From a bacterium (GTDB taxonomy: Bacteria > Patescibacteriota > Minisyncoccia > Phycocordibacterales > UBA5272): a DNA stretch of 64,000 nt. The notes under the pieces were generated by a model. The model was given only the letters and a program-made list of their open reading frames with translations, did no database searches and was not told the origin of the DNA. The position numbers were made by a program, and so were the translations under genes. The stretch covers positions 2,165 to 66,164 of the forward strand of contig JAHFNB010000003.1 of NCBI GenBank assembly GCA_023267595.1, given 5' to 3'. This document shows positions 4,825 through 33,258 of the stretch, one piece after another; the stretch's first letter is position 1, and each line of letters begins with the position of its first letter.

Positions 4825-6168
4825 ATGAAATCTCGTTTAGGAATTATCTTATGTGGTATTGGTATTTCCTTCTGTATCCCAGCCATTTCCCTTGCACAAG
4901 AGTCTACATCAACATCATTTAAAATGTTTGACCCTGTGATTGCACCGGGTGGATTTGCTACATCTACAAGTTTTCAATTATGGAGCACACTTACGGAAAT
5001 TGCTACAGGATTTAGTTCATCAACACTTTTTCAACTCGGCGCAGGGTTTTTGCGATATCCACTTGTTTCTACACCTATTGTTTCTGCTACTGCAGGAGAT
5101 GCACAAGTATTTTTGTCATGGACTGCTTCTCAAGGGTTTTGGCATATCATGCCTTCTACGTATATGCTCGGACGATCTACTATTTCAGGTGGTCCATACA
5201 CATTTAGTTCAGTTGGTTTTGGTTCTACCGTTACCGGTCTTACAAATGGAACCACCTATTATTTCGTCGTGCGTGTTCATGATGTAGATGGAAATGTATT
5301 GGCAACGTCGACTCAAGTCTCTGCTACACCACAAGCAGCAAGTAGTGGCGGTGGAGGCGGTGGAGGCGGTGGAGGCGGTGGAGGCGGTGGAGGCGGTGGA
5401 GGCGGTGGAGGCGGAGGCGCTAGTACACCAACGGCAACTGCAGTTGTATTTTATGGAAGAGCCTATCCAAAAAGTATTGTAACGTTACTTAAAGACGCAC
5501 AAATTGCAGCAACTACAATTGCAGGAGCAGACGCAAATTTCCAGATAAGTTTGTCAGGTATTTCTTCAGGGAATTATATTTTTTCATTATATGGTGAAGA
5601 TAATAAAGGTTTGCGATCATCACTTCTTTCTTTTCCGGTAAGTGTGACGCAAGGTGCTACAACCCAAGTCACTGGTATTTTTATTACACCAACTATTGAT
5701 GTAGATAAAAGTGAAGTACGACAAGGAGATAACATTGCAATTTTTGGACAAAGTACACCTCGTTCAGAAATTATTATAAGTGTGCATTCTGATGAAGAAT
5801 ATTTCCAAAAAAAGACATCAGATAATAATGGTGCATATCTTTTTAATTTTGATACATCAGTTCTTGAAATGGGACAACATCAAACAAAATCGAAGACATC
5901 ACTTGATGGAGAAATTAGTGCTTTTAGCCAAGTGATTGGATTTTTAGTTGGTACGAAAAATGTAGCAGCACTTACAAAAAAGAAAATTTTAAAAGGAGAT
6001 CTTAATAAAGATGGAAAAGTAAACTTAATAGATTTTTCTATTGCTTCGTTTTGGTATAGACGTCCACTTTCAGAATCATTTAAAGCAATTGAAATAGAAC
6101 GTTTAAATGCAGATGGAAAAGTTGATTTAAAAGATTTCAGTATTATGGCATTTTATTGGACCGGGTAA
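4825..6168 (+). CDS. Secreted protein with signal peptide, 24-residue poly-Gly linker and C-terminal type-I dockerin-like duplicated Ca-binding repeats
   Basis: N-terminal signal peptide (GIGISFCIPAISLAQE). C-terminus has two dockerin repeat segments, DLNKDGKVNLIDFS and LNADGKVDLKDFS. Gly24 run encoded by a 9-bp tandem repeat. Confidence 0.7.
   Translation: MKSRLGIILCGIGISFCIPAISLAQESTSTSFKMFDPVIAPGGFATSTSFQLWSTLTEIATGFSSSTLFQLGAGFLRYPLVSTPIVSATAGDAQVFLSWTASQGFWHIMPSTYMLGRSTISGGPYTFSSVGFGSTVTGLTNGTTYYFVVRVHDVDGNVLATSTQVSATPQAASSGGGGGGGGGGGGGGGGGGGGGGGGASTPTATAVVFYGRAYPKSIVTLLKDAQIAATTIAGADANFQISLSGISSGNYIFSLYGEDNKGLRSSLLSFPVSVTQGATTQVTGIFITPTIDVDKSEVRQGDNIAIFGQSTPRSEIIISVHSDEEYFQKKTSDNNGAYLFNFDTSVLEMGQHQTKSKTSLDGEISAFSQVIGFLVGTKNVAALTKKKILKGDLNKDGKVNLIDFSIASFWYRRPLSESFKAIEIERLNADGKVDLKDFSIMAFYWTG
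5347..5418. repeat. Tandem 9-bp microsatellite (GGCGGTGGA) x7 perfect plus one imperfect copy, encoding poly-Gly
   Basis: ggcggtgga repeated head-to-tail from 5347 to 5409, then ggcggaggc. The alternative frames give the VEAVEA and GGGG artefact ORFs at 4940 and 5288. Confidence 0.95.
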
Positions 6169-8224: not shown

Positions 8225-9922
8225 ATGATTTTGCGCATTTTTTTGTCATCTCTATTTTTTTTCACATCGTTACAAAGTGTAAGTGCTGCCAATCTTATTA
8301 TAGTGCCTAGTGGAGGATCCTATAGTGCAGGAAGTTCTTTTTCTGTGAATATTTCTGTGTCAAATAATCAAGATCCTATTAATGGAGTTTCAGGAGTTGT
8401 TTCATTTTCTACTGATACACTTGAACTAACTTCAATTTCAAAATCAGGATCCATAATGACCATGTGGGCAGAAGAGCCGACATTTTCTAATGCAACAGGA
8501 CGTGCTTCTTTTGAAGGTGTTATCTTTAATCCAGGATTTAATGGTTCACAAGGGAAAATTATAGCACTTAACTTTAGAGCAAAAAGAGCGGGTACTGCAA
8601 CAGTAACACTTACTGGTGGATCTGTGCTTGCTAATGATGGTAATGCAACAAATGTCTTAGGTACATTAGGTTCATCAACGTTCACGATAAGCGATGGTGT
8701 TGTAAAAGATACCGTAAAAGAGCCAACCACAACAAAAACAACATCAGGAAATACCCCTGTCATAACCTCATCGTCATATCCTGATAGTACAAAGTGGTAT
8801 AACTCAAAAGATGCATCATTTGCATGGACTGTATCATCATCAGTAACTGCGGTTCGAACTCTGTATGATGAAAATGAAGATGGTACTCCTAATAAAGTAT
8901 ATGATCCACCTATTAATAATCGTTCGTTTACTGTAGATGGTGATGGAGTTATGTATATGCATGTGCAGTTTAAAACTGGAGGCGGATGGGGAAGTATTGC
9001 ATCGTATAAGTTCCAAGTTGATACAGATGCACCAGAAACATTAAAAGCAACATTTCCTGATGGCACAATAACAACGAACCCTACTCCTGCTATTTTAGTA
9101 ACCGCGGCCGATAAACTCTCTGGTGTTGATCGTATTACTATGGCAATAGATGGTAGTGATCCTGTTACGTATACTATTGATCCATCTAACTTGTATCGTT
9201 TGCCAAAACAACTTTCTGGTAAACATACAGTTGTTATCGGTGCTATAGATAAAGCAGGAAACAGTAGTACAGTTTCACTTGAGTACACAATACAAACAAT
9301 AGCAGTGCCTGTTATTACACAATATACGAAACATATTGAACTTGGAGGAACATTGCATATAGAAGGGACAACCTATCCTTCTACTATTGTAGAACTTACC
9401 ATGATTGATAAAGAGGGTACTTCTCAGGTGGAAACTACAACAGCAGATGAATCAGGTATATTTACACTCTCATGGTCAAAGAAATTAGAAACTGGAATAT
9501 TTGATTTAAAGGCTCGTGCAGTAAATCAGAAAGGTGCTATGAGTGATTATTCTGAGCCAAAGACAATCGTTATTGATAACGTTCCTCTTATACGATTAGG
9601 AATATTTATTATGAATTGGTTATCTCTGGTTCTTATAGTAATTCTCGGATTAGTTGCTATTATTGCAACCTTCTGGTTCTCTTTCACACAATTTGGTAGA
9701 TTTAGAAGAAAAGTTCGCCGTACTATGCTTGAAGCAGAAAATACATTGAAAACTAACGTACAGGGATTGCGGCGAGATGTAGAAGAGTTCCATACACTTC
9801 TCATCAAAGCAGAACGTAAACGAAAACTTACCAAAGAAGAGCAAGCAATCTTGAAAAAGTTTAAGAAACGAATTGATACTATAGAAAAAGAAATAGAAAA
9901 TAAACTAGATGCTATAGGATAG
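8225..9922 (+). CDS. Surface protein: signal peptide, cohesin-like domain, Ig-like domains, C-terminal TM helix and cytoplasmic coiled-coil tail. ORF is open from 8156; Met 8225 begins the signal peptide.
   Basis: MILRIFLSSLFFFTSLQSVSA signal peptide. ANLIIVPSGGSY...VSGVVSFSTDTLELTSI...IIALNFRAKRAGTATVTLTGGSVLANDG is a cohesin-like segment paralogous to the 6173 ORF. TM helix LSLVLIVILGLVAIIATFWF, then a K/E-rich coiled coil. Confidence 0.5.
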   Translation: MILRIFLSSLFFFTSLQSVSAANLIIVPSGGSYSAGSSFSVNISVSNNQDPINGVSGVVSFSTDTLELTSISKSGSIMTMWAEEPTFSNATGRASFEGVIFNPGFNGSQGKIIALNFRAKRAGTATVTLTGGSVLANDGNATNVLGTLGSSTFTISDGVVKDTVKEPTTTKTTSGNTPVITSSSYPDSTKWYNSKDASFAWTVSSSVTAVRTLYDENEDGTPNKVYDPPINNRSFTVDGDGVMYMHVQFKTGGGWGSIASYKFQVDTDAPETLKATFPDGTITTNPTPAILVTAADKLSGVDRITMAIDGSDPVTYTIDPSNLYRLPKQLSGKHTVVIGAIDKAGNSSTVSLEYTIQTIAVPVITQYTKHIELGGTLHIEGTTYPSTIVELTMIDKEGTSQVETTTADESGIFTLSWSKKLETGIFDLKARAVNQKGAMSDYSEPKTIVIDNVPLIRLGIFIMNWLSLVLIVILGLVAIIATFWFSFTQFGRFRRKVRRTMLEAENTLKTNVQGLRRDVEEFHTLLIKAERKRKLTKEEQAILKKFKKRIDTIEKEIENKLDAIG

Positions 9923-9956: not shown

Positions 9957-11615
9957 ATGAATGGGTCAACCTCTATGCTCTATGCCAAAGATTTAACAAA
10001 TCTCATTTCTGGTGATGTATCAGTAGCAGAGGGAGAAAGAGAAAAAGTCGCGCGTGATACAAGTTTATTTTATGTAAAACCAGAGATTGTTATTTTTCCG
10101 AAAAATAGGGATGATATTTCTCATGTTCTTTCATATGTTCATGCTATAAAAGCAAAAGGCGGAAATCTTTCAGTTACCATGCGTGCTGCAGGAACTTGTA
10201 TGACGGGTGGTCCACTATCTTCATCTATTGTAATTGATACTACACGATATATGAATCATATAGGAGAGGTAACCAAAGAGTCTGCCATTGCAGAATCTGG
10301 AGTGTATTATCGTGATTTTGAAAAAGAAACTCTTAAAAAGGGTTGGCTTATGCCTAGTTATCCTGCATCACGTGAGTTAGCAGCAATTGGAGGTATTGTG
10401 TCAAATAATTCTGGTGGAGAAAAGACACTTGTGTATGGAAAAACAGAAAAGTATATCAAAGCACTTGATGTTGTTTTTGCAGATGGTAGTTCAGATACAC
10501 TTTGTCCTCTTACAAGACAAAATCTTGAAGTAAAGATGAAAGAACAAAGTGAGAGTGGAAGGATACATAGAGAATTGTTTGCTCTTATTGATAATAATTA
10601 TGAAATAATTAAACAAGCAAAACCATCTGTGTCCAAAAACTCCTCCGGATATTATCTATGGAATGTATATGATAAAGAAAAAGATATTTTTGATATAACA
10701 AAAGTAGTAGTTGGCTCTCAAGGAACACTTACTTGTATATCATCTGCAACGGTAACTGGTGTGCAAGTAAAAGAACATTCTCGAATGCTTGTTATGTTTT
10801 TACCAACAACATCACACTTAGGAGAGATTATTCCACAAATACTTAAGCATAAACCAGAAACACTTGAATCCTATGATGATCATACCTTTAAAATAGCAGT
10901 TCGATTTTTCAAAGATATTGCACTTCGTATGGGGGGAGATATGTTTACGTTAGGATTTCAATTTTTACCAGAGTTTTGGATGGTTGTAACAGGAGGCGTA
11001 CCAAAAATAATTCTTATGGCAGAGTTCACAGGAGAATCTGAAGAAGAGGTAGAACAACAAGTACAAACTGCCTATGATGATATGAAGCAGTTTGATCTTC
11101 CAATAAAACGTACAAAAAATGCTTTAGAATCAAAGAAGTATTGGACATTTCGTCGAGAGAGTTTTAATCTTCTTCGTACTCGCTTACAAGGATACCGTAC
11201 TGCACCTACCATTGATGATATTATTGTTCATCCAAAAGATTTACCAGAGTTTTTGCCACAATTAGAGACTATTTTTTCAAAATATGATTTGATATATACC
11301 ATTGCAGGACATATGGGGGATGCTAATTTTCATGTTATTCCACTTGTTAATCTTCATAAAGAGGGGATTGTAGATCAATTACATAAACTTATGGACGAAG
11401 TGTACGACTTGGTACTTTCTTATAATGGTTCTATTTCTGCAGAACATAATGATGGATTATTGCGCACTTCATATCTTTCAAAAATGTTTACTCCAGAAGT
11501 TATTTCACTTTTTGAAAAGACAAAAGACATCTTTGATCCACTTCATATTTTAAATCCTATGAAGAAAGTGTATCCTGACAAAGAATTTGCATGGAGTCAT
11601 ATTGATACCAAATAA
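9957..11615 (+). CDS. FAD-binding oxidoreductase, PCMH-type FAD-linked oxidase family (GlcD / D-lactate dehydrogenase-like)
   Basis: FAD-binding PCMH signature (VIFPKNRDDISHVLSYVHAIKAKGGNLSVTMRAAGTCMTGG; GGIVSNNSGGEKTLVYGKT). C-terminal FAD-oxidase C-domain length and HxD motif (GHMGDANFHV). Confidence 0.75.
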   Translation: MNGSTSMLYAKDLTNLISGDVSVAEGEREKVARDTSLFYVKPEIVIFPKNRDDISHVLSYVHAIKAKGGNLSVTMRAAGTCMTGGPLSSSIVIDTTRYMNHIGEVTKESAIAESGVYYRDFEKETLKKGWLMPSYPASRELAAIGGIVSNNSGGEKTLVYGKTEKYIKALDVVFADGSSDTLCPLTRQNLEVKMKEQSESGRIHRELFALIDNNYEIIKQAKPSVSKNSSGYYLWNVYDKEKDIFDITKVVVGSQGTLTCISSATVTGVQVKEHSRMLVMFLPTTSHLGEIIPQILKHKPETLESYDDHTFKIAVRFFKDIALRMGGDMFTLGFQFLPEFWMVVTGGVPKIILMAEFTGESEEEVEQQVQTAYDDMKQFDLPIKRTKNALESKKYWTFRRESFNLLRTRLQGYRTAPTIDDIIVHPKDLPEFLPQLETIFSKYDLIYTIAGHMGDANFHVIPLVNLHKEGIVDQLHKLMDEVYDLVLSYNGSISAEHNDGLLRTSYLSKMFTPEVISLFEKTKDIFDPLHILNPMKKVYPDKEFAWSHIDTK

Positions 11616-13171: not shown

Positions 13172-13319
13172 TGAGGAAATTATTGTGACTACAAGTTTTC
13201 TTTCGTCGTCACTCAAGAAACTCGCAGCCCACCCCTCGTGGTTTTGTCTGCTGACAAAACATCACTGCGGCCCTCCACAAAGCACAAAACCTGCAGCAGT
13301 GCAGGTTTTTGTGTTTTTG

Positions 13320-13392
13320 TGGACCCTAGCGGAATCGAACCGCTCACCTCCGGAGTGCAAAACCGGCGCTCTACCATATGAGCTAAGGGCCC
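13320..13392 (-). tRNA. tRNA-Ala (anticodon UGC)
   Basis: Reverse complement GGGCCCTTAGCTCATATGGTAGAGCGCCGGTTTTGCACTCCGGAGGTGAGCGGTTCGATTCCGCTAGGGTCCA folds as a cloverleaf. G3:U70 Ala identity pair. Anticodon loop TTTGCAC with U33 and A37. T-loop GGTTCGATTCC. CCA not encoded. Confidence 0.85.
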
Positions 13393-17016: not shown

Positions 17017-17045
17017 GAAGCCGCCTTTTAGGCGGCTTGCTTATT
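17017..17045. terminator. Bidirectional intrinsic terminator between convergent genes
   Basis: gaagccgcc-tttta-ggcggcttg hairpin flanked by A/T runs on both sides. Confidence 0.7.
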
Positions 17046-17727
17046 TCCATAAATGAGTTCCAACTCTATCTTCTGCAAACTTATGATTTACATCACGATG
17101 TAACATTTCGTCTTTAATTGTTGCAGAAATCATATCAGATAACGTTGCATCTTTTTTCAGATTCCAATATGTCTTTGCAAACTCTGTTGCAGGAATATCT
17201 TTATGGACACCATTTTTTACAAGTTCCAAGTAATGTTCATAACTGTGTATGGCTTCTTCTTCAAAATAACCGACAACTCGATGTGCAGTTTTTGGAGAAA
17301 TGAGATACAGAATAAAATAGAGATGATAAAAGAAAAACTGTACTATCATGATGAGAAGTTTCTCAAATGCATTTGGCTGTACTATTTCACTGTAGATAAT
17401 GAGATGTACTCGTTCATTTTCTGCTTCGTCTAGTAATGTACGTATCCATCCTCTATCATCACGAATGAATCGTAAAGATTTTAAATGTTGTAGTAATCCA
17501 CCAACCATTCCAGGAACGGCTGCAATTGTTTCTAACACCACTGCACGATGCCCATAACGATTTTGAAATAAAAAGTCTGCACATGTAGCAGAGAAATGCA
17601 CTATAGATTTTGCTATATAATCCGATGTACTTTTCGGAGTTTGTCTGAATTGTTCTTGATGGTTCGTAATACGAGGGATAACTGCATGGGTATCTTCAAA
17701 CATATCATCACTTTTCTCTTCTAACAT
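17041..17727 (-). CDS. aox: Alternative oxidase (AOX; non-haem di-iron quinol oxidase)
   Basis: All four AOX di-iron helices present: LETIAAVPGMVGGLLQH, LLDEAENERVHLIIY, HRVVGYFEEEAIHSYEHY, IKDEMLHRDVNH. Confidence 0.8.
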   Translation of the reverse strand: MLEEKSDDMFEDTHAVIPRITNHQEQFRQTPKSTSDYIAKSIVHFSATCADFLFQNRYGHRAVVLETIAAVPGMVGGLLQHLKSLRFIRDDRGWIRTLLDEAENERVHLIIYSEIVQPNAFEKLLIMIVQFFFYHLYFILYLISPKTAHRVVGYFEEEAIHSYEHYLELVKNGVHKDIPATEFAKTYWNLKKDATLSDMISATIKDEMLHRDVNHKFAEDRVGTHLWK

Positions 17728-17793: not shown

Positions 17794-19068
17794 ATGTTAG
17801 ACATCAAATTTATTCGCGAAAATAGCGAACTTATTAAACTGGCTGCAACCAAAAAACATCTTTCATTTAATGTCGATGAATTGGTAAAGGTAGATACAGA
17901 ACGGTTAAATCTTTTAAAAGTAGTAGAAGATTTACGAGGAGAACAAAATCGAGCAAGTGAAGAAATTGCAAAATCAAGTGGTGAAGAGAGAAATGGTTTG
18001 ATAGAATCTATGCGCCGCGTGAAAGAAGATCTCAAGAAAAAAGAAGAAGAATTAGAAGACGTTATGAAAAGTTGGCGAGTACTCATGTTATCAGTGCCAA
18101 ATATTCCAGATGTTTCAGTTCCAGAAGGAGCAAGTGATGCAGATAATAAAGAAGTAAAAAAATGGGGGACTATACCAACTTTTTCATTCACACCACTTGA
18201 TCATATAGCACTCATGGAAGGTCAGGATATGGTAGATTTTGAGCGTGGTACCAAGACTTCTGGGTTTCGTGGGTATTTCCTCAAAAATGATGCTGCTATG
18301 CTAGAAATGGCAATTTGGCAATACATTATGAATACGTGGCAGACAAAAGGTTTTATACCAATGCTTGTTCCTTCACTTGTTAAACGTGAAGCATTATTAG
18401 GTACAGGATATTTACCTCAAGGTGAAGATGATTTGTATAAAGATGGTAATGATTATTTTGCAGGAACAGGCGAGGTTGCCACTATGTTTTTTCATAGCGA
18501 TGAAGTATTGGAACAATCATCTCTTCCAAAAAAATATATTGTGTGGAGTCCATGTTTTCGTAAAGAAGCAGGAAGTCATGGTAAAGATGTAAAAGGTCTC
18601 ATTCGTGTTCATGAATTTTATAAATGCGAACAAGTGGTTTTATGTGAAGCATCTCATGAACAATCAGTAACATACCATGAAGAAATTACACGTAACGCAG
18701 AAGAAATGATGGAAGCACTAGGACTTCCATACCATACAGTTGCAAATTGTGGTGGAGATCTTGGTTTGGGACAAGTAAAAAAATATGACATTGAAGTGTG
18801 GATGCCTTCTCAAGAGAAATATCGAGAGACACATTCTGCAAGTTATTTTCACGATTTTCAAACACGACGTTTAAATATTCGTTACAAGGATACTGAAGGA
18901 AAACTTCTCTACACTCATTCACTTAATAATACTGCAGGTGCAACACCACGCCTTGTTACAGCAATTATAGAAAATTATCAACAGGCAGACGGAACCATCA
19001 AAGTACCTGATGTACTTGTACCTTTTATGAATGGAAAAACGATACTCGGAAAATCTTTCCGTTCATAA
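17794..19068 (+). CDS. serS: Seryl-tRNA synthetase
   Basis: MLDIKFIRENSELIK N-terminus, coiled-coil arm, class II aaRS core (GTGEVATMFFH, FRKEAGSHGKDVKGLIRVHEF, NNTAGATPRL). Confidence 0.9.
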   Translation: MLDIKFIRENSELIKLAATKKHLSFNVDELVKVDTERLNLLKVVEDLRGEQNRASEEIAKSSGEERNGLIESMRRVKEDLKKKEEELEDVMKSWRVLMLSVPNIPDVSVPEGASDADNKEVKKWGTIPTFSFTPLDHIALMEGQDMVDFERGTKTSGFRGYFLKNDAAMLEMAIWQYIMNTWQTKGFIPMLVPSLVKREALLGTGYLPQGEDDLYKDGNDYFAGTGEVATMFFHSDEVLEQSSLPKKYIVWSPCFRKEAGSHGKDVKGLIRVHEFYKCEQVVLCEASHEQSVTYHEEITRNAEEMMEALGLPYHTVANCGGDLGLGQVKKYDIEVWMPSQEKYRETHSASYFHDFQTRRLNIRYKDTEGKLLYTHSLNNTAGATPRLVTAIIENYQQADGTIKVPDVLVPFMNGKTILGKSFRS

Positions 19069-19930
19069 TATTATGAAGAAGAGACGACGTATTCTCTGGA
19101 AAAAAGTCGGTTTCTATAGTTTTATATTTATTACTATGGTAGCACTTTTTTATATAGCCTTTAGAACACCACTATTTACGATTACATCCTATGAATTACT
19201 AGGAGTTCCACAAGAAAATGAATCTATTATTAGAAGTCGATTAGAAGAAATCGCACAAAAACCACTGTATAAAATATTTCCGAGTAATAGAATATTTTCA
19301 TATCGCAAGTTGTATATTAAATCTTTAATTACAGAAATAGTGCCCACAACAGAAACTATAACCTTATTTCCAGTAGGTTTGCACACATTGCGTATAACGG
19401 TGACACCATATACACCACTTTTTAGTATTGATGATACCCATGCAATCACAAAAGATGGAGTTATCTATGAAGTACAGAAATCAAAACTTGATTTACCAAT
19501 TTTTGAAAGTGCCTCATCAACAACAAAGACGTTTCAAAGAGAAGGTGTGACTGTGGTAATACTAGATGATAAAACTGTAGAACTACTTTCTCCTATCGCA
19601 ACCTTAGTAGAAAAAATAGACTCTGTACTATTTCCTGTTTTTAAAATTACTATTGACGGGTTTGGTGACGTCAAGTTATTTGATAAGCAAGAAAAAAGTA
19701 TGGTACTTATTGCTTCAAGTAATGATATGAAAAAAGTCTGGTCTAATCTTTTAAGTGCAATAGATACTGAACCACTCAAATCAAAGTTAGTAAAAGATAA
19801 AAATAATTTACTGTATCTTGATACTCGATTCGGAAATAAAGTTTTTTATAAGTTTACAAATATCCCCAAGACAGATATAATCCCATCCTATGTTGCTACT
19901 ACGACATCTTCAACGACTATTTCACATTAG
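19031..19930 (+). CDS. Membrane protein, possibly FtsQ/DivIB-like (N-terminal TM plus POTRA-like segment)
   Basis: Basic N-terminus then TM helix (VGFYSFIFITMVALFYIAF), followed by ITSYELLGVPQENESIIRSRLEEI, reminiscent of a POTRA domain. Overlaps the serS end by 38 nt. Confidence 0.35.
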   Translation: MEKRYSENLSVHNIMKKRRRILWKKVGFYSFIFITMVALFYIAFRTPLFTITSYELLGVPQENESIIRSRLEEIAQKPLYKIFPSNRIFSYRKLYIKSLITEIVPTTETITLFPVGLHTLRITVTPYTPLFSIDDTHAITKDGVIYEVQKSKLDLPIFESASSTTKTFQREGVTVVILDDKTVELLSPIATLVEKIDSVLFPVFKITIDGFGDVKLFDKQEKSMVLIASSNDMKKVWSNLLSAIDTEPLKSKLVKDKNNLLYLDTRFGNKVFYKFTNIPKTDIIPSYVATTTSSTTISH

Positions 19931-31243: not shown

Positions 31244-31272
31244 GTGTGAAGTATAACAGACTATAATCTTTT

Positions 31273-31300
31273 CTTTGCTGGGGTTGTGGGACGAAGTTGG
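31273..31300. repeat. Direct repeat R1: degenerate tRNA-Gln 3'-end-like sequence (att-like)
   Basis: ctttgctggggttgtgggacgaagttgg. Shares tttgctgggg plus a gggac.gaa core with R2, and the first 12 nt with the real tRNA-Gln 3' end (R3). Confidence 0.6.
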
Positions 31301-31377
31301 AACTTTTTTAATACAATAAGTTGACACAAATATATAGATACTGTATTGTATTTTTAATCGAACTTTAAGGAGATCAC

Positions 31378-31734
31378 GTGTCCGACTGGCATATTACACC
31401 GAGGATTAAGGTCCGAGCCCATGCTCAATATTTGGACTTGCTTTCACACACGGTAAGCCGATGCGGAAAAGAGTTTTCTGAAAATAGAGTAGTATGTCCG
31501 AAAGGGCTCTATCGGAATGGGTATAGTAATCGTGCACTCAACTACTGTCTTGATATTGGTTTTTTGGTTCAGAGTGAAAACTCTTCCATGTGTTCGGTAA
31601 CAGTCGAAGGCGAAAGAGCACTTGAAGACTTAAAACAATACAGAATCAAAAGACAAATTGAGATCCTTCAAAAGAAAAAGAAGAAAATAGAGGATCAGAT
31701 TGCAACACTGCAAAAGGCCTACCGCCAAGCATAA
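31378..31734 (+). CDS. Hypothetical small protein with C-terminal coiled coil, carried on a ~0.5-kb islet between R1 and R2
   Basis: 118 aa. Ends in a very strong terminator. Cys/His-containing N-terminal half, K/E/Q-rich C-terminus. Confidence 0.45.
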   Translation: MSDWHITPRIKVRAHAQYLDLLSHTVSRCGKEFSENRVVCPKGLYRNGYSNRALNYCLDIGFLVQSENSSMCSVTVEGERALEDLKQYRIKRQIEILQKKKKKIEDQIATLQKAYRQA

Positions 31735-31735
31735 A

Positions 31736-31765
31736 CAAAATCGCTTCGGCGGTTTTGTTTTTTTT
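31736..31765 (+). terminator. Intrinsic terminator with UUCG tetraloop
   Basis: caaaatcgc-ttcg-gcggttttg, then TTTTTTT. Confidence 0.8.
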
Positions 31766-31792
31766 CTAACATAAAAATTTCTGCAAAATTAT

Positions 31793-31820
31793 TTTGCTGG
31801 GGCTGTGGGACGAAGTTGGG
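31793..31820. repeat. Direct repeat R2: second degenerate tRNA-Gln 3'-end-like sequence
   Basis: ttttgctggggctgtgggacgaagttgg, 26/28 identical to R1. Confidence 0.6.
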
Positions 31821-31833
31821 ACAAAATTAATTT

Positions 31834-32718
31834 CTAGTTAAAGCATTTTTCAATCAGCTCATCACAATTATCATAGATTTTAATTTCTACAGCTGGTATA
31901 CCGAACTTCTTATTTAAAAAGTCTATAATATAATCTTTTTTGTCTTTATTTTTAATCGTCACATGAATTTCTGATATAGAATATGGTGTAAACTCAATAT
32001 TATCTAAATTTATTTGTAGCCCATTACCTAGCCCTAAGATATATAATTTTTTAGTTCCATACATTTTTAACACATGTTTTTCACTTTCATGACAAGATAT
32101 TGCATCTATTACATCTTGTAGCTCACTCTTTTTTGTCTTTAAATGCCTATACAAACGATTAGCACTCTGTGATTCTTGTTCTGAATAAAAATTACCATGT
32201 GGATAGAAAGTTTGTACATAAGCCGAGAGGTTGGCTATTCTTGACCTATAGTCAACCTTTCTTTCTTTTTCTGTTAAATATTCAAAAAGAAGAATATTTT
32301 TGTCTAAAACATTATCATAGTTATAATTTATAAAAGCTATTTTATTTTCTAGATTATTACTATCTAAAATTTTTTGATTTAATTTATTTATCCAACCATC
32401 CTCATTTTCTTTATAGAGTTCTGTAAAAATTATTTTCATTATCAAAAAAATATAATTTTCAATTGTTAGACCGTTGGAACGATAATTCCTTGATCTTGAC
32501 TCTTTTGTAATACATTCGTCTATTGTATTATACTCTTTGCCATCTCCTACTTTTCTAAGCCAAGAAAGAATCTCTTCTTTATATTTTAAAGCTTTATCTT
32601 CCATAAACTTTTTTTCGATTAAGATAACAAGTTTATCCCAAGTAGGTAGTCCATAATCTACAGAGGCACCAGCACCAAGAATTAAAAGATGTTCTACTCG
32701 GCTACTAAGTTCTTTCAT
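31834..32718 (-). CDS. Stand-alone SIR2-like (SIR2_2 / DHS-like NAD-binding) protein; candidate NADase defence effector
   Basis: N-terminal LLILGAGASVDYGLPTWDKL (GAGxS...GLPxW signature). NYNYDNVLD (N-Y-D motif). YPHGNF (HG motif). LYILGLGNGLQ. On an islet between R2 and tRNA-Gln. Confidence 0.65.
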   Translation of the reverse strand: MKELSSRVEHLLILGAGASVDYGLPTWDKLVILIEKKFMEDKALKYKEEILSWLRKVGDGKEYNTIDECITKESRSRNYRSNGLTIENYIFLIMKIIFTELYKENEDGWINKLNQKILDSNNLENKIAFINYNYDNVLDKNILLFEYLTEKERKVDYRSRIANLSAYVQTFYPHGNFYSEQESQSANRLYRHLKTKKSELQDVIDAISCHESEKHVLKMYGTKKLYILGLGNGLQINLDNIEFTPYSISEIHVTIKNKDKKDYIIDFLNKKFGIPAVEIKIYDNCDELIEKCFN

Positions 32719-32894
32719 TTGATTTTAATTTATTTAGTTTATTAAAACTAGTTGTTGATTTAATAGTATACAAGGATTCGGTCACAAAACTCCCTCGCTT
32801 TGCTCGAAGTACTTTCGCGACCCCGTATTCGAGTCCTTACGTACGTGAAGCAGTTCACGTACTGTACCCCGAAAAGAAATAAGCTTTGCTTTTT

Positions 32895-32921
32895 CTTTGC
32901 TGGGGTACAAGGACTCGAACC
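32895..32921. repeat. Direct repeat R3 = 3' end of the intact tRNA-Gln plus flanking caaag
   Basis: ctttgctggggtacaaggactcgaacc. The first 12 nt are identical to R1. Confidence 0.6.
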
Positions 32922-32970
32922 TCGATACTCAGGACCAAAACCTGATGTCCTACCATTAGACGATACCCCA
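32900..32970 (-). tRNA. tRNA-Gln (anticodon UUG)
   Basis: Reverse complement TGGGGTATCGTCTAATGGTAGGACATCAGGTTTTGGTCCTGAGTATCGAGGTTCGAGTCCTTGTACCCCAG folds as a cloverleaf. U1:A72 (Gln identity). Anticodon loop TTTTGGT. T-loop TTCGAGT. Confidence 0.8.
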
Positions 32971-33007
32971 ATATTATCAAACTATTTTACACTACTCATT
33001 ATTTATT

Positions 33008-33086
33008 GTCCTGAGTGTCAGGACCACTGTATTTTACCGCTTCGTAAACTCCGCTTGCTGATGTCCTACCATTAGACGATACCCCA
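33008..33086 (-). pseudogene. Fragmented tRNA-Gln copy: exact duplicate of tRNA positions 1-29, then a 31-nt insertion at the anticodon loop, then GGTCCTGA; the 3' half is missing
   Basis: 33058-33086 is identical to 32942-32970. The reverse complement reads TGGGGTATCGTCTAATGGTAGGACATCAG-[CAAGCGGAGTTTACGAAGCGGTAAAATACAG]-TGGTCCTGA then diverges. Confidence 0.5.
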
Positions 33087-33258
33087 AATAAACAGACGTT
33101 AGATTTTAGACAATAGACTATAGATTTTCCTCTAATGTCTAGTGCTTAATGTCTAATAACTGTGCAAAATATTCTACCATGAAAAGATTGCTTGCGCGAG
33201 AGTAATGTATATGAGTATACTCATCTCATTACCTATTTAATTTCTCAAAAATTATTTT

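Follow-up and report, generated by a model that had tools for sequence, protein, structure and literature searches.

Is the tRNA-Gln(UUG) gene of this Patescibacteria (Paceibacteria/Nomurabacteria-like) bacterium, with partial copies of itself on either side, a place where mobile elements have come to rest, or do the copies have another origin? The question was raised by a first-pass annotation of the window (the whole 64-kb stretch of DNA analysed here), which described direct repeats of the tRNA 3' end downstream of the gene, a duplicated 5' half upstream and an inverted T-arm copy enclosing a palindrome, and took them together as marks of repeated site-specific insertion and excision. Its four observations on the sequence all hold up and go far beyond chance; they do not all carry the same meaning. 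It is argued below that small elements moved by large serine recombinases (LSRs) probably use the tRNA-Gln 3' end as attB, the downstream repeats R1 and R2 (Table 1) being junctions and the remaining tRNA-like pieces being older. Related loci are referred to by L numbers.

Table 1. Features at and downstream or upstream of tRNA-Gln, in window positions; att assignments are putative
Feature	Position	Strand	Description
tRNA-Gln(UUG)	32899-32970	minus	ARAGORN; Rfam tRNA 59.9 bits
Candidate attB left half-site	32906-32921	minus	GGTTCGAGTCCTTGTA, within tRNA-Gln 3' end
Candidate crossover core	32899-32905	minus	CCCCAGC, tRNA-Gln 3' end
R2	31796-31822	minus	attP-left-type half-site joined to core: GTCCCAACTTCGTCCCACAG-CCCCAGC
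R1	31277-31303	minus	same site type as R2: GTTCCAACTTCGTCCCACAA-CCCCAGC
tRNA trailer	32871-32898	minus	small hairpin AAGC/GCTT with A-rich and T-rich flanks, terminator-like
Y-shaped module	32766-32870	minus	from alignment and consensus fold
Upstream module	32984-33087	minus	5'-half copy, insert, hairpin, predicted tRNA promoter
Cassette cargo 1: standalone SIR2-fold protein, 294 aa	31834-32718	minus	same orientation as tRNA
Cassette cargo 2: orphan ORF, 118 aa	31378-31734	plus	between R1 and R2

Direct repeats of the tRNA-Gln end and the genes they bound

R1 and R2 are identical at 28 of their first 30 nt (31274-31303 and 31793-31822), and the consensus of these 30 nt finds two matches in the window where 0.00 are expected. 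CCCCAGC and 3-9 further nt are common to tRNA-Gln, R1 and R2, always in direct orientation; R1 shares the exact 16-mer TTTTCTTTGCTGGGGT with the tRNA-Gln 3' end and its trailer (31269-31284 = 32891-32906) and runs on into AAAGAAAA, matching the tRNA trailer letter for letter, while TTTGCTGGGG occurs three times in 64 kb against 0.07 expected. Profile matches extend over 31790-31832 for R2 (nhmmer E = 4.5e-10) and 31273-31314 for R1 (E = 1.1e-08). A further sense copy of the tRNA-Gln end, S2, overlooked in the first-pass annotation, lies at 32766-32780; in the window it is without the CCCCAGC core. No inverted copy of R was found anywhere in the window with up to three mismatches allowed. With as little as 10-16 nt of core in common with the tRNA, the repeats might be dismissed as chance or low-complexity matches; that reading, of negligible probability, is refuted by the expected counts just given and by the recovery of the same family in nine independent loci, in the same context each time. 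The description of R1 and R2 as direct repeats resembling the tRNA 3' end is sound.

The two genes bounded by the repeats are of different kinds. The SIR2-like gene ends 11 nt before the start of R2. Its product is matched by the PADLOC SIR2 model (E = 3e-5) and modelled by AlphaFold2 with a pLDDT of 93; the top Foldseek matches are FAM118B, SIR2-HerA, SPARSA, DSR2 and ThsA (E = 9e-6 to 1e-3), with TM-scores of just 0.35-0.5. N131, N133, D135 and H174, presumably the catalytic residues, are invariant across 31 SIR2-fold homologs, and the fold and the Asn/His of the catalytic region are held in common with defence-type SIR2 proteins (ThsA, DSR2, SIR2-HerA, SPARSA, FAM118B). The protein is probably an NAD-degrading defence protein. 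It differs from the defence-type proteins in standing alone, without a partner gene or sensor domain, and no partner or sensor component (HerA, pAgo, SLOG, TIR etc.) adjoins the gene in the window. Its homologs are likewise solitary and mostly placed straight after a tRNA; around those at other tRNAs no direct repeats of the tRNA end were found. The 118-aa ORF has its own promoter-like (31321-31349) and terminator-like (31733-31760) sites and a single homolog in 5.8 billion proteins, in L108, which is also flanked by degenerate R-sites.

In the 80 syntenic relatives the genes downstream of tRNA-Gln have no homologs, while the 96-aa and 209-aa genes upstream of it are nearly universal; a hypervariable downstream flank beside a conserved upstream one upholds the hotspot reading. 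In L010, the closest relative, the stretch from the tRNA module to SWIB is occupied by other genes. Among near-identical public contigs neither an empty-site allele nor a size polymorphism turned up, and the relatives, which do differ in gene content, include none near enough for a clean empty site. Two short contigs, L006 and L007, were considered as alternative junctions and rejected, their non-matching ends being Illumina adapters.

The window holds no recombinase to account for the repeats. The statement that no integrase is present was confirmed, as Pfam gives no integrase domain in any window ORF of at least 220 aa and tblastn no LSR or Rep homolog in the 64 kb. The cassettes of the window can consequently be at most non-autonomous or decayed members of an LSR-element family.

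A site family linked to tRNA-Gln and to LSR elements

R1 and R2 are members of a conserved family of sites, (AT-rich)GTTC[C/G]AAnnTCGTCCCACAGCCCCAGC, of well-defined length (27-37 nt), with 16 copies in nine related loci: 13 recovered by profile (E = 1e-10 to 3e-6) from related loci totalling ~1.3 Mb, plus three in L110 and L111. Every one of the 16 lies downstream of a tRNA-Gln and in the orientation of the tRNA, mostly 3-70 nt past a stop codon. The left arm of the site is conserved across genomes and not tRNA-derived, and its subtypes match LSR subtypes. Successive sites are 519 nt apart in the window, 681, 630 and ~600 nt in L093, 472 nt in L027 and 576 nt in L041. In L093 they form an array of at least eight R-type sites, ~0.55-0.7 kb apart with 1-2 ORFs per interval, whose degeneracy rises with distance from tRNA-Gln and whose cargo includes NUDIX, GNAT, GrpB and SRPBCC genes.

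Four relatives have an element inserted precisely at the tRNA-Gln 3' end, with an R-type site as its far junction. An intact LSR is encoded in three of them (L094; L110, with two elements; and L111); here the LSR elements directly abut the tRNA 3' end, and a rolling-circle Rep sits in the tRNA-proximal element. The fourth, L045, has Rep and an LSR remnant; L040 also carries an LSR. An integrase, which the first-pass annotation had suggested seeking beyond the window, is thus found in relatives and is an LSR. The L094 insert, of 5.9 kb, lies exactly between the tRNA-Gln 3' end and the trailer known from L041, with the direct repeat CCCAGCAA on both sides; its genes include an LSR (Resolvase + Recombinase + Zn_ribbon) and Rep (PF23343), and an R-type site forms its distal end. 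In L110 two LSR elements stand in tandem; the second (LSR2, with its recombinase at L110:5433-6956) ends in GTTCCAACTTCGTCCCATAGCCCCAAC, the R subtype of the window and the one to which R1 belongs. The elements of L111 and L045 have the same build as those of L110.

The site and the tRNA end can be compared motif by motif. GTTCSA occupies -16..-10 in tRNA-Gln and -21..-15 in both R subtypes, and GTCC stands in the same register, -9..-6, in both tRNA-Gln and R. In LSR att sites the motif of the zinc-ribbon domain is shifted by 5 bp between attB and attP (PMC3783163); at the level of sequence, the half-site spacing of R against tRNA-Gln agrees with this attP-versus-attB geometry. The right half is less clear: a P' arm, ATTTCATCAATAGTGCAATTTTTAGGTG, is conserved among LSR1-type elements, its inverted symmetry with P is only ~50% in a hand alignment, and among cassettes no conservation is seen right of the R core, where a P' arm would be expected.

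The following course of events may be proposed. The tRNA-Gln(UUG) 3' end would be a chromosomal attachment site, consisting of the attB left half-site and core of Table 1, for a small mobile-element family of Paceibacteria-type Patescibacteria moved by LSRs. Each insertion would leave the tRNA intact and create, at the far end of the insert, a hybrid junction of the element's attP left arm with the shared core. R1 and R2 would be two such junctions of the 'LSR2' subtype, bounding two single-gene cassettes, one with the SIR2-fold protein and one with the 118-aa orphan; cassettes lacking a recombinase would be either stripped-down remnants or non-autonomous units, the recombinase being supplied in trans. 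I infer, for this genome itself, the making of R1 and R2 by an LSR, the order of insertion and any present-day mobility. The view of the tRNA-Gln 3' end as a site-specific insertion hotspot is borne out by the R-site family, the LSR elements and the variable downstream flank, and that of R1 and R2 as att-type junctions delimiting two small inserted cassettes finds support in the R-site family at tRNA-Gln and in the LSR-element ends of relatives.

R-sites mostly follow stop codons directly, on the tRNA strand, and end in the ACCCCAG(C) of the tRNA; the module next to them, on the same strand, resembles structured RNA (see below). They might accordingly be 3'-UTR signals acting at the RNA level, which mimic the tRNA-Gln 3' end in the 3' processing or stabilisation of co-transcribed mRNAs, their linkage to the gene being explained by shared machinery. 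This is very improbable. The 118-aa cassette lies on the opposite strand, which places R1 upstream of its promoter; an R-type site is the exact end of the inserted LSR element in L094, L110 and L111, and in L110 it falls inside the LSR gene that follows, at the 3' end of that gene; moreover, the complementary strand needed for a tRNA-like helix is absent.

The arrays also call integrons to mind, in that they consist mostly of single-ORF cassettes (0.47-0.83 kb), each ending in a site 3-70 nt past the stop codon, with most ORFs co-oriented with the tRNA and an identical 7-nt core in all sites. The long L093 array has cargo of the integron-cassette kind, and a highly structured element lies between tRNA and array. 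R could then be an attC-like folded-strand or tyrosine-recombinase site, the tRNA end or the Y-shaped module would correspond to attI, and the tRNA promoter would drive cassettes that have no promoter of their own. However, neither the window nor the scanned loci with arrays contain IntI or any other tyrosine recombinase (Phage_integrase-type domain), R-sites lack both an inverted partner and hairpin potential and so do not qualify as attC, an LSR is the sole recombinase found physically linked to them, and the half-site spacing follows LSR rules. A platform of this sort is improbable.

Structured modules on either side of the tRNA

The inverted T-arm/acceptor copy of the first-pass annotation exists (TTCGAGTCCTT, 32828-32838, plus strand, then a hairpin and GTACCCC), and it lies wholly within the Y-shaped module. 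The closing stem of this module, GGGGUAC/GUA(U)AC, reuses the acceptor sequence of tRNA-Gln; the other parts are hairpin HP0 (stems 32841-32849 / 32854-32862, loop 32850-32853) and, as a long arm, AAGGACUCG...CGAAUCCUU, whose core is 'unit B'. HP0 is what had been called a perfect 22-nt palindrome (32841-32862): its 9-bp stem stands, whereas the 4-nt loop GCAG is not palindromic. Among relatives six of the nine HP0 pairs are altered on both sides and none is broken. In the consensus fold of the module 96% of cells are paired and 10 pairs show compensatory changes; none of 500 shuffles was as good, and fold z-scores range from -2.7 to -7.9. The two sides of the tRNA trailer are likewise complementary, lengthening the pairing of the tRNA 3' strand with the downstream GGGGTAC, and this inverted repeat covaries in relatives (TCACAC/GTGTGA, AACACA/TGTGTT, TTTGT/ACAAA, AAAGAAA/TTTCTTT).

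On the other side of the gene, the reported duplication of the tRNA 5' half is exact over 30 nt (32942-32971 = 33058-33087, i.e. tRNA positions 1-29 and one flanking base). It is accompanied by a 32-nt insert (33026-33057) and then by GGTCCTGA, equal to tRNA positions 36-43, which together with its own inverted copy forms a hairpin at 33008-33024. This hairpin overlaps the -35 box of the predicted tRNA promoter (-35 AGGACA, 33012-33007; -10 TAAAAT, 32989-32984). The upstream module is present in L010, L025 and L030, with inserts in L040 and L043, and as the hairpin alone in L034.

Both modules are kept in many relatives whose intergenic DNA is otherwise unalignable, and their stem sequences follow the local tRNA-Gln sequence. 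The Y-shaped module and the upstream 5'-half copy with its promoter hairpin are older conserved features, not fresh scars; the reading of the 5'-half duplication and the inverted T-arm as signs of recent insertion and excision did not hold, both being conserved in relatives and the stem covarying. The best guess is that the modules are structured RNA co-transcribed with the tRNA, serving as processing or insulating punctuation before the cassettes; two conserved G-U pairs are the one feature that favours RNA over DNA. Neither module matches Rfam, even at permissive thresholds, and with RF00005 and ARAGORN the true tRNA-Gln alone scores, even at E up to 10, the pieces having no cloverleaf.

Several other identities were considered and set aside. 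A MITE or dispersed repeat does not fit motifs that occur only beside tRNAs in the window and ~1.2 Mb of loci; nor does this lineage place an antisense copy after every tRNA, since only a subset of tRNA-Gln(UUG) loci has one. A retroviral-type primer-binding site is discounted by the antisense copy pairing with the genomic trailer and not with the CCA end, and the motifs of group II intron domain V, hammerhead ribozyme, SRP RNA and 6S RNA misfit by inspection. The module is not the P' arm of an LSR element either: the trailer is unlike the conserved LSR P' arm, and the LSR element of L094 inserts between tRNA and module. In a scan of viral contigs, the R1/R2 consensus, the R-site and unit B had no match and the LSR protein no relative; matches to the tRNA 3' end in L008 and L009 are unrelated phage tRNA-Gln genes.

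As a separate observation, a related 'unit A', a structured element with clear covariation, lies downstream of tRNA-Ala (in the viral contigs it gave just two chance matches inside coding sequence), and the tRNA-Ala of the window weakly shows the antisense-copy feature too.

Could all the tRNA-like pieces, R1 and R2 included, be decayed tandem or inverted duplications of tRNA-Gln, produced by slippage or unequal crossing-over and involving no mobile element? The 3' arm of the module does resemble the tRNA-Gln 3' half with an internal deletion (AGTTTTGTGACCGAGTCCTTGTAC vs GGTTTTGGTCC...CGAGTCCTTGTAC), the upstream piece equals the 5' two-thirds of the tRNA, and in L014 and L043 the copies follow the local tRNA variant. 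For the two modules a duplication origin may be true. As an account of everything it is unlikely: the left arm of R-sites is conserved, not tRNA-derived, and varies in step with LSR subtypes; LSR and Rep insertions have exact boundaries; gene content between the repeats is unrelated among relatives; and neutral relics would be unalignable at such divergence.

The preferred reading, of LSR elements using the tRNA-Gln 3' end, has weak points of its own. In the window, L093, L041, L027 and L021 the cassettes sit beyond the Y-shaped module and not against the tRNA, which simple serial insertion does not predict unless the module came last or S2 is a secondary attB. Canonical LSRs recombine attP with attB only, so that tandem insertion beside an existing attL requires relaxed specificity. 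The 16-nt identity of R1 with tRNA and trailer is also more than an LSR needs. A possible though rather doubtful variant is that serine-recombinase cassettes, with one attP-type site apiece, are stacked in integron-like fashion at tRNA-Gln and expressed by read-through from the tRNA promoter. The Y-shaped element, a copy of acceptor and T-stem sequence of the tRNA, would then either punctuate the RNA, as an RNase P/Z-type signal, or offer a protected secondary landing pad. If this were true, the Y-shaped element would be a new class of structured nucleic-acid element.

The locus among known systems

Insertion hotspots at tRNA genes are textbook knowledge, and Dehalococcoides already offers a precedent for serine-recombinase islands in tandem at an RNA gene. 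Less ordinary here are single-gene cassettes of integron size, whose 27-37-nt site is well defined, the tiny-genome Patescibacteria host, in which little is known of the exchange of accessory and defence genes, and a sequence geometry from which attP, attB and enzyme can be concretely assigned. If this is confirmed, the pairs of R-site and LSR would be ready-made new integrase/att pairs, and the arrays a simple marker for flexible gene pools in metagenome-assembled genomes. The Y-shaped tRNA-mimicking module and unit A of tRNA-Ala are uncharacterised structured elements that merit a dedicated RNA study.

The ssrA islands of Dehalococcoides (McMurdie et al. 2011, PMC3146451) resemble this locus in being tandem islands downstream of one small-RNA gene, each delimited by a copy of the 3' end of that gene in direct orientation, with an element-derived conserved motif just upstream of each repeat that cannot be aligned with the gene, and with a serine recombinase (~500 aa) encoded beside attL; some lack an integration module and have been discussed as cis-mobilisable (PMC3146451). 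In contrast, tRNA-Gln and not tmRNA is the target here, and the small-genome host belongs to the Patescibacteria; many of the units are no multi-kb islands but cassettes of 0.5-1.2 kb with a single gene, autonomous versions carry a rolling-circle Rep, and a conserved Y-shaped tRNA-mimicking module is present at the locus.

Like the tycheposons of Prochlorococcus (Hackl et al., bioRxiv 10.1101/2020.12.28.424599), these elements build hypervariable islands by integration at tRNA genes, with older elements pushed outward by new arrivals, partial tRNA copies and fragmented integrases as scars, and replication genes next to cargo that includes defence genes. Tyrosine recombinases are, however, found in 910 of 937 tycheposons (bioRxiv 10.1101/2020.12.28.424599), whereas LSRs alone were seen here; the replication gene is an HUH Rep (PF23343) instead of a primase or helicase, and the cassettes are much smaller.

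With the large serine integrase systems A118/LI, Bxb1 and phiC31 (Rutherford et al. 2013, PMC3783163) the locus shares a short common core, a proximal motif in register and a distal motif 5 bp nearer the centre in attB than in attP, although here the correspondence is one of sequence geometry, the right half-sites being poorly defined, and the tandem arrays, unlike canonical LSR systems, imply insertion beside an existing attL. With integrons, finally, it has in common arrays whose cassettes mostly hold a single ORF, with a conserved site at the ORF 3' end, and apparent growth at one anchored end beside a strong promoter (here that of the tRNA); it departs from them in having no IntI tyrosine recombinase, in R-sites that are not hairpin-forming attC, and in being anchored at a tRNA gene.

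Repeats at the tRNA-Gln gene and its hypervariable flank

The first-pass annotation had described the tRNA-Gln(UUG) gene as an integration hotspot, and every repeat or duplication it listed is present. R1 and R2, the two repeats downstream of the gene, agree at 28 of 30 positions, and their consensus has two matches within the window against 0.00 expected; an exact 16-mer is common to R1 and the 3' end of the tRNA with its trailer, and TTTGCTGGGG occurs three times in the window (expectation 0.07). Positions 1-29 of the tRNA, with one flanking base, are duplicated exactly upstream, and the T-loop, T-stem and acceptor strand are copied in inverted orientation, the copy being split by a hairpin. 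This had been called a perfect palindrome; the hairpin stands, the palindromy does not, for a 9-bp stem encloses a 4-nt non-palindromic loop. The reported lack of an integrase is borne out, no recombinase domain being found in any window ORF of 220 aa or more. No polymorphism was seen among near-identical contigs.

Positions of the features discussed
Feature	Locus	Position	Strand
tRNA-Gln(UUG)	window	32899-32970	minus
R1	window	31274-31303	
R2	window	31793-31822	
118-aa ORF	window	31378-31734	plus
SIR2-fold 294-aa gene	window	31834-32718	minus
Downstream module	window	32766-32870	minus
Inverted copy split by hairpin	window	32826-32870	
Upstream module	window	32984-33087	minus
5'-half duplicate	window	33058-33087	
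tRNA-Ala	window	13319-13392	
CTGC-loop hairpin and unit A	window	13189-13318	minus
Alternative oxidase gene	window	17041-17727	minus
Cyt-b5 gene	window (L001 numbering)	18808-19305	
Adapter-derived ends	L006	1-49, 1273-1287	
Adapter-derived ends	L007	1-18, 1242-1256	
Truncated tRNA-Glu	L008	~385-420	
RVT_1 + Trypsin_2 fusion	L027	1684-3345	
Second repeated motif	L093	~6075-6115, 8800-8840, 10430-10460	
LSR frame into tRNA	L094	13276-14790	
LSR frame into tRNA	L110	10001-11515	
LSR frame into tRNA	L111	10001-11515	

The window comes from a metagenomic contig of 141 kb. With the flanking RmuC protein as query, 334 relatives were retrieved, the best 80 of which are all Patescibacteria MAGs (Nomurabacteria, Paceibacterota, Yonathbacteria and similar), the closest being L010 (93% protein identity). 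In 15 of these loci a tRNA-Gln(UUG) keeps its position and orientation relative to RmuC. Upstream of the tRNA, nearly every one of the 80 loci has homologs of the 96-aa and 209-aa genes; downstream, homologs among the 80 were found only for the SWIB gene (L010, L015) and the 86-aa ORF (L017, L042, L023), and none for the SIR2-like gene or the 118-, 75-, 99-, 90- and 155-aa ORFs. L010 retains SWIB on the far side, but other genes intervene, among them those for a META-domain protein and a short-chain dehydrogenase. The downstream flank of tRNA-Gln is hypervariable.

Two short public contigs carrying the 155-aa gene (L006, L007), considered as variants, were rejected as assembly artefacts, their ends being Illumina adapter; their insert boundaries are identical in two samples. 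On an unrelated phage contig (L008), an ORF has inserted into the tRNA-Glu gene beside a phage tRNA-Gln and left it truncated, the copy in L009 being intact. Elsewhere in the window lie genes for an alternative oxidase (PF01786, E = 2e-70) and a cytochrome b5-domain protein, both unexpected in a Patescibacteria genome, the group being usually described as devoid of respiratory components.

Probable junction sites and large serine recombinases

Site-specific insertion at the tRNA had been proposed, and for R1 and R2 the proposal is supported: their site family is tied, in relatives, to large serine recombinase (LSR) elements. A search by pattern and then by profile, both built from R1 and R2, yielded 13 clear copies in 7 loci (E = 1e-10 to 3e-6): four in L093, two each in the window, L027 and L041, and one each in L021, L045 and L094; L110 and L111 hold three more. 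The consensus is an AT-rich run, then GTTC[C/G]AAnnTCGTCCCACAG, then CCCCAGC, the terminal sequence of the tRNA. Every site has a tRNA-Gln upstream of it in the same orientation, and most follow the stop codon of an ORF pointing the same way by 3-70 nt. In L093 the four strong sites are spaced 630-1207 nt apart, with at least four degenerate ones farther out, and one or two small ORFs lie in every interval (NUDIX, peptidase S51, pyrophosphatase, SRPBCC, GNAT, GrpB). Among 5.8 billion sequences the 118-aa protein has a single homolog, at L108, which is likewise flanked by degenerate R-sites. The L093 array also contains a second repeated motif, CCAATTAAGAGTTCTGAACyTrCTTACTwGAGGCrGC, interspersed among its R-sites, which may mark junctions of a different kind of element.

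In L094 a 5.9-kb segment, with CCCAGCAA on both flanks and an R-type site at its distal end, lies exactly between the 3' end of tRNA-Gln and a trailer that in L041 directly abuts the tRNA. Besides two peptidoglycan-binding proteins and a rolling-circle Rep (PF23343), the segment encodes an LSR; this has Resolvase, Recombinase and Zn_ribbon_recom domains, and its gene overlaps the tRNA at the 3' end. The syntenic locus L110 carries two tandem elements, in the order tRNA, LSR1-Rep-..., R (CGTTCGAATATCGTAC subtype), LSR2-...-Mrr-AIPR, R (GTTCCAACTTCGTCCCATAGCCCCAAC); the last site is of the subtype of R1 and R2, and the two recombinases share 41% identity. The arrangement is repeated in L111, where the tRNA is a tRNA-Gln(CUG), and in L045, with Rep and an LSR remnant. 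The LSR family exceeds 1700 members, many database homologs being exactly 504 aa long. In L094, L110 and L111 the LSR frame continues into the tRNA-Gln gene and reads it in antisense, so that the last ~20 LSR residues (..GYKDSNLDTQDQNLMSYH) are encoded by the tRNA.

Numbered from the leading C of CCCAGC, the tRNA has GTCC at -9..-6 and GTTCGAG at -16..-10; the R-site likewise has GTCC at -9..-6, and its two subtypes both have GTTCSAA at -21..-15. In LSR attB half-sites the zinc-ribbon-domain motif is 5 bp nearer the centre than in attP (11-19 vs 16-24), the recombinase-domain motif being in register (Rutherford et al., PMC3783163). Judged by this spacing, R1 and R2 look like attP-left arms joined to the core, the form expected of attR-type junctions. 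Awkward for insertion at the tRNA is that the R-bounded cassettes of the window and four relatives lie beyond the downstream module and do not abut the gene; nor are right half-sites conserved among cassettes. Tandem insertion is non-canonical for LSRs.

Structured modules beside the tRNA

The tRNA-like pieces adjoining the gene had been taken for insertion and excision scars, but they are not fresh ones: they are conserved in relatives, and the downstream fold shows covariation. Positions 32767-32840 are 90% identical to L010, the remaining intergenic DNA being unalignable, and the downstream architecture recurs in L010, L021, L023, L027, L041, L043, L014, L092-L095 and L098: tRNA, trailer with a small terminator-like hairpin, GCTGGGGTACA, the hairpin HP0 (9-10 bp, loop CTGC), GTAAGGACTCGAA, a structured core (the alternative units B or A) and CGAGTCCTTGTAC. 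The consensus fold is Y-shaped, its closing stem GGGGUAC/GUACCCC being the acceptor-stem sequence of the tRNA; it has 34 pairs, with 96% of cells paired and compensatory changes at 10 pairs, and none of 500 shuffles was as good. In HP0, 6 of 9 pairs covary and none is broken. Two conserved G-U pairs favour the tRNA-sense strand, and in L014 and L043 the copies track the local tRNA variant. No Rfam family matches the module. Because LSR elements insert between tRNA and module (L094), the latter behaves as resident DNA rather than a fresh scar.

Downstream of tRNA-Ala, a hairpin with the CTGC loop of HP0 is followed by unit A (..GTGATG-stem-AGCA-stem-CCACGAG..GCGAG-stem-GACG-stem-ACTTGTAG). Unit A, whose stems covary and which has no matching Rfam family, also lies downstream of tRNA-Gln in L010, L027, L014 and L043.

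Upstream, the 5'-half copy, a 32-nt insert and a GTCCTGA hairpin are conserved in L010, L025 and L030; in L040 and L043 the module is present with nested inserts. The -35 box predicted for the tRNA promoter coincides with the 3' arm of this hairpin. Hairpin-forming inserts (e.g. CTCCCGATTTCTTAGATTG...CAATCTGTAGAAATC) are nested in the D-loop region of the 5'-half copy in L040, L043, L041 and L094.

Cargo and comparison with known systems

For the 294-aa protein Pfam gives no match and PADLOC a weak one, to SIR2; the protein's model (pLDDT 93) matches the defence-type SIR2 domains of FAM118B, SIR2-HerA, SPARSA, DSR2 and ThsA, and N131, N133, D135 and H174 are invariant in 31 homologs. In 6 of 8 other loci examined (5 of 7 proteins) a homolog lies 5-130 nt downstream of a same-strand tRNA, namely tRNA-Gln(CUG) in L101, L102 and L103, tRNA-Gln(UUG) in L104 and tRNA-Asn in L106 and L107; these homologs are 45-57% identical, and no repeat of the tRNA end is detectable near them. 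The corresponding flank of other relatives carries defence-type genes: an EcoRI-like methylase with GmrSD/HNH, a reverse transcriptase-trypsin fusion, SocA/Panacea and an NYN domain. In L027 the fusion (RVT_1 + Trypsin_2) lies directly 3' of the tRNA-Gln module and SocA/Panacea farther along, both being defence-type cargo of the hotspot.

To sum up, tRNA-Gln is a genuine hotspot, and a mechanism of a known kind, here in an unusual miniature form, accounts for it; what is new at the locus is the neighbouring structured modules. Integrons resemble it in cassette size and layout, yet their defining features are missing here, and the closest tRNA-based analogue is the tycheposons of Prochlorococcus. 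Of the systems described so far, the nearest is the ssrA genomic-island array of Dehalococcoides, in which 3'-end repeats each stand beside an element-derived motif, a serine recombinase lies at attL and some islands are without an integration module (PMC3146451); its logic and that of the tRNA-Gln locus are alike.
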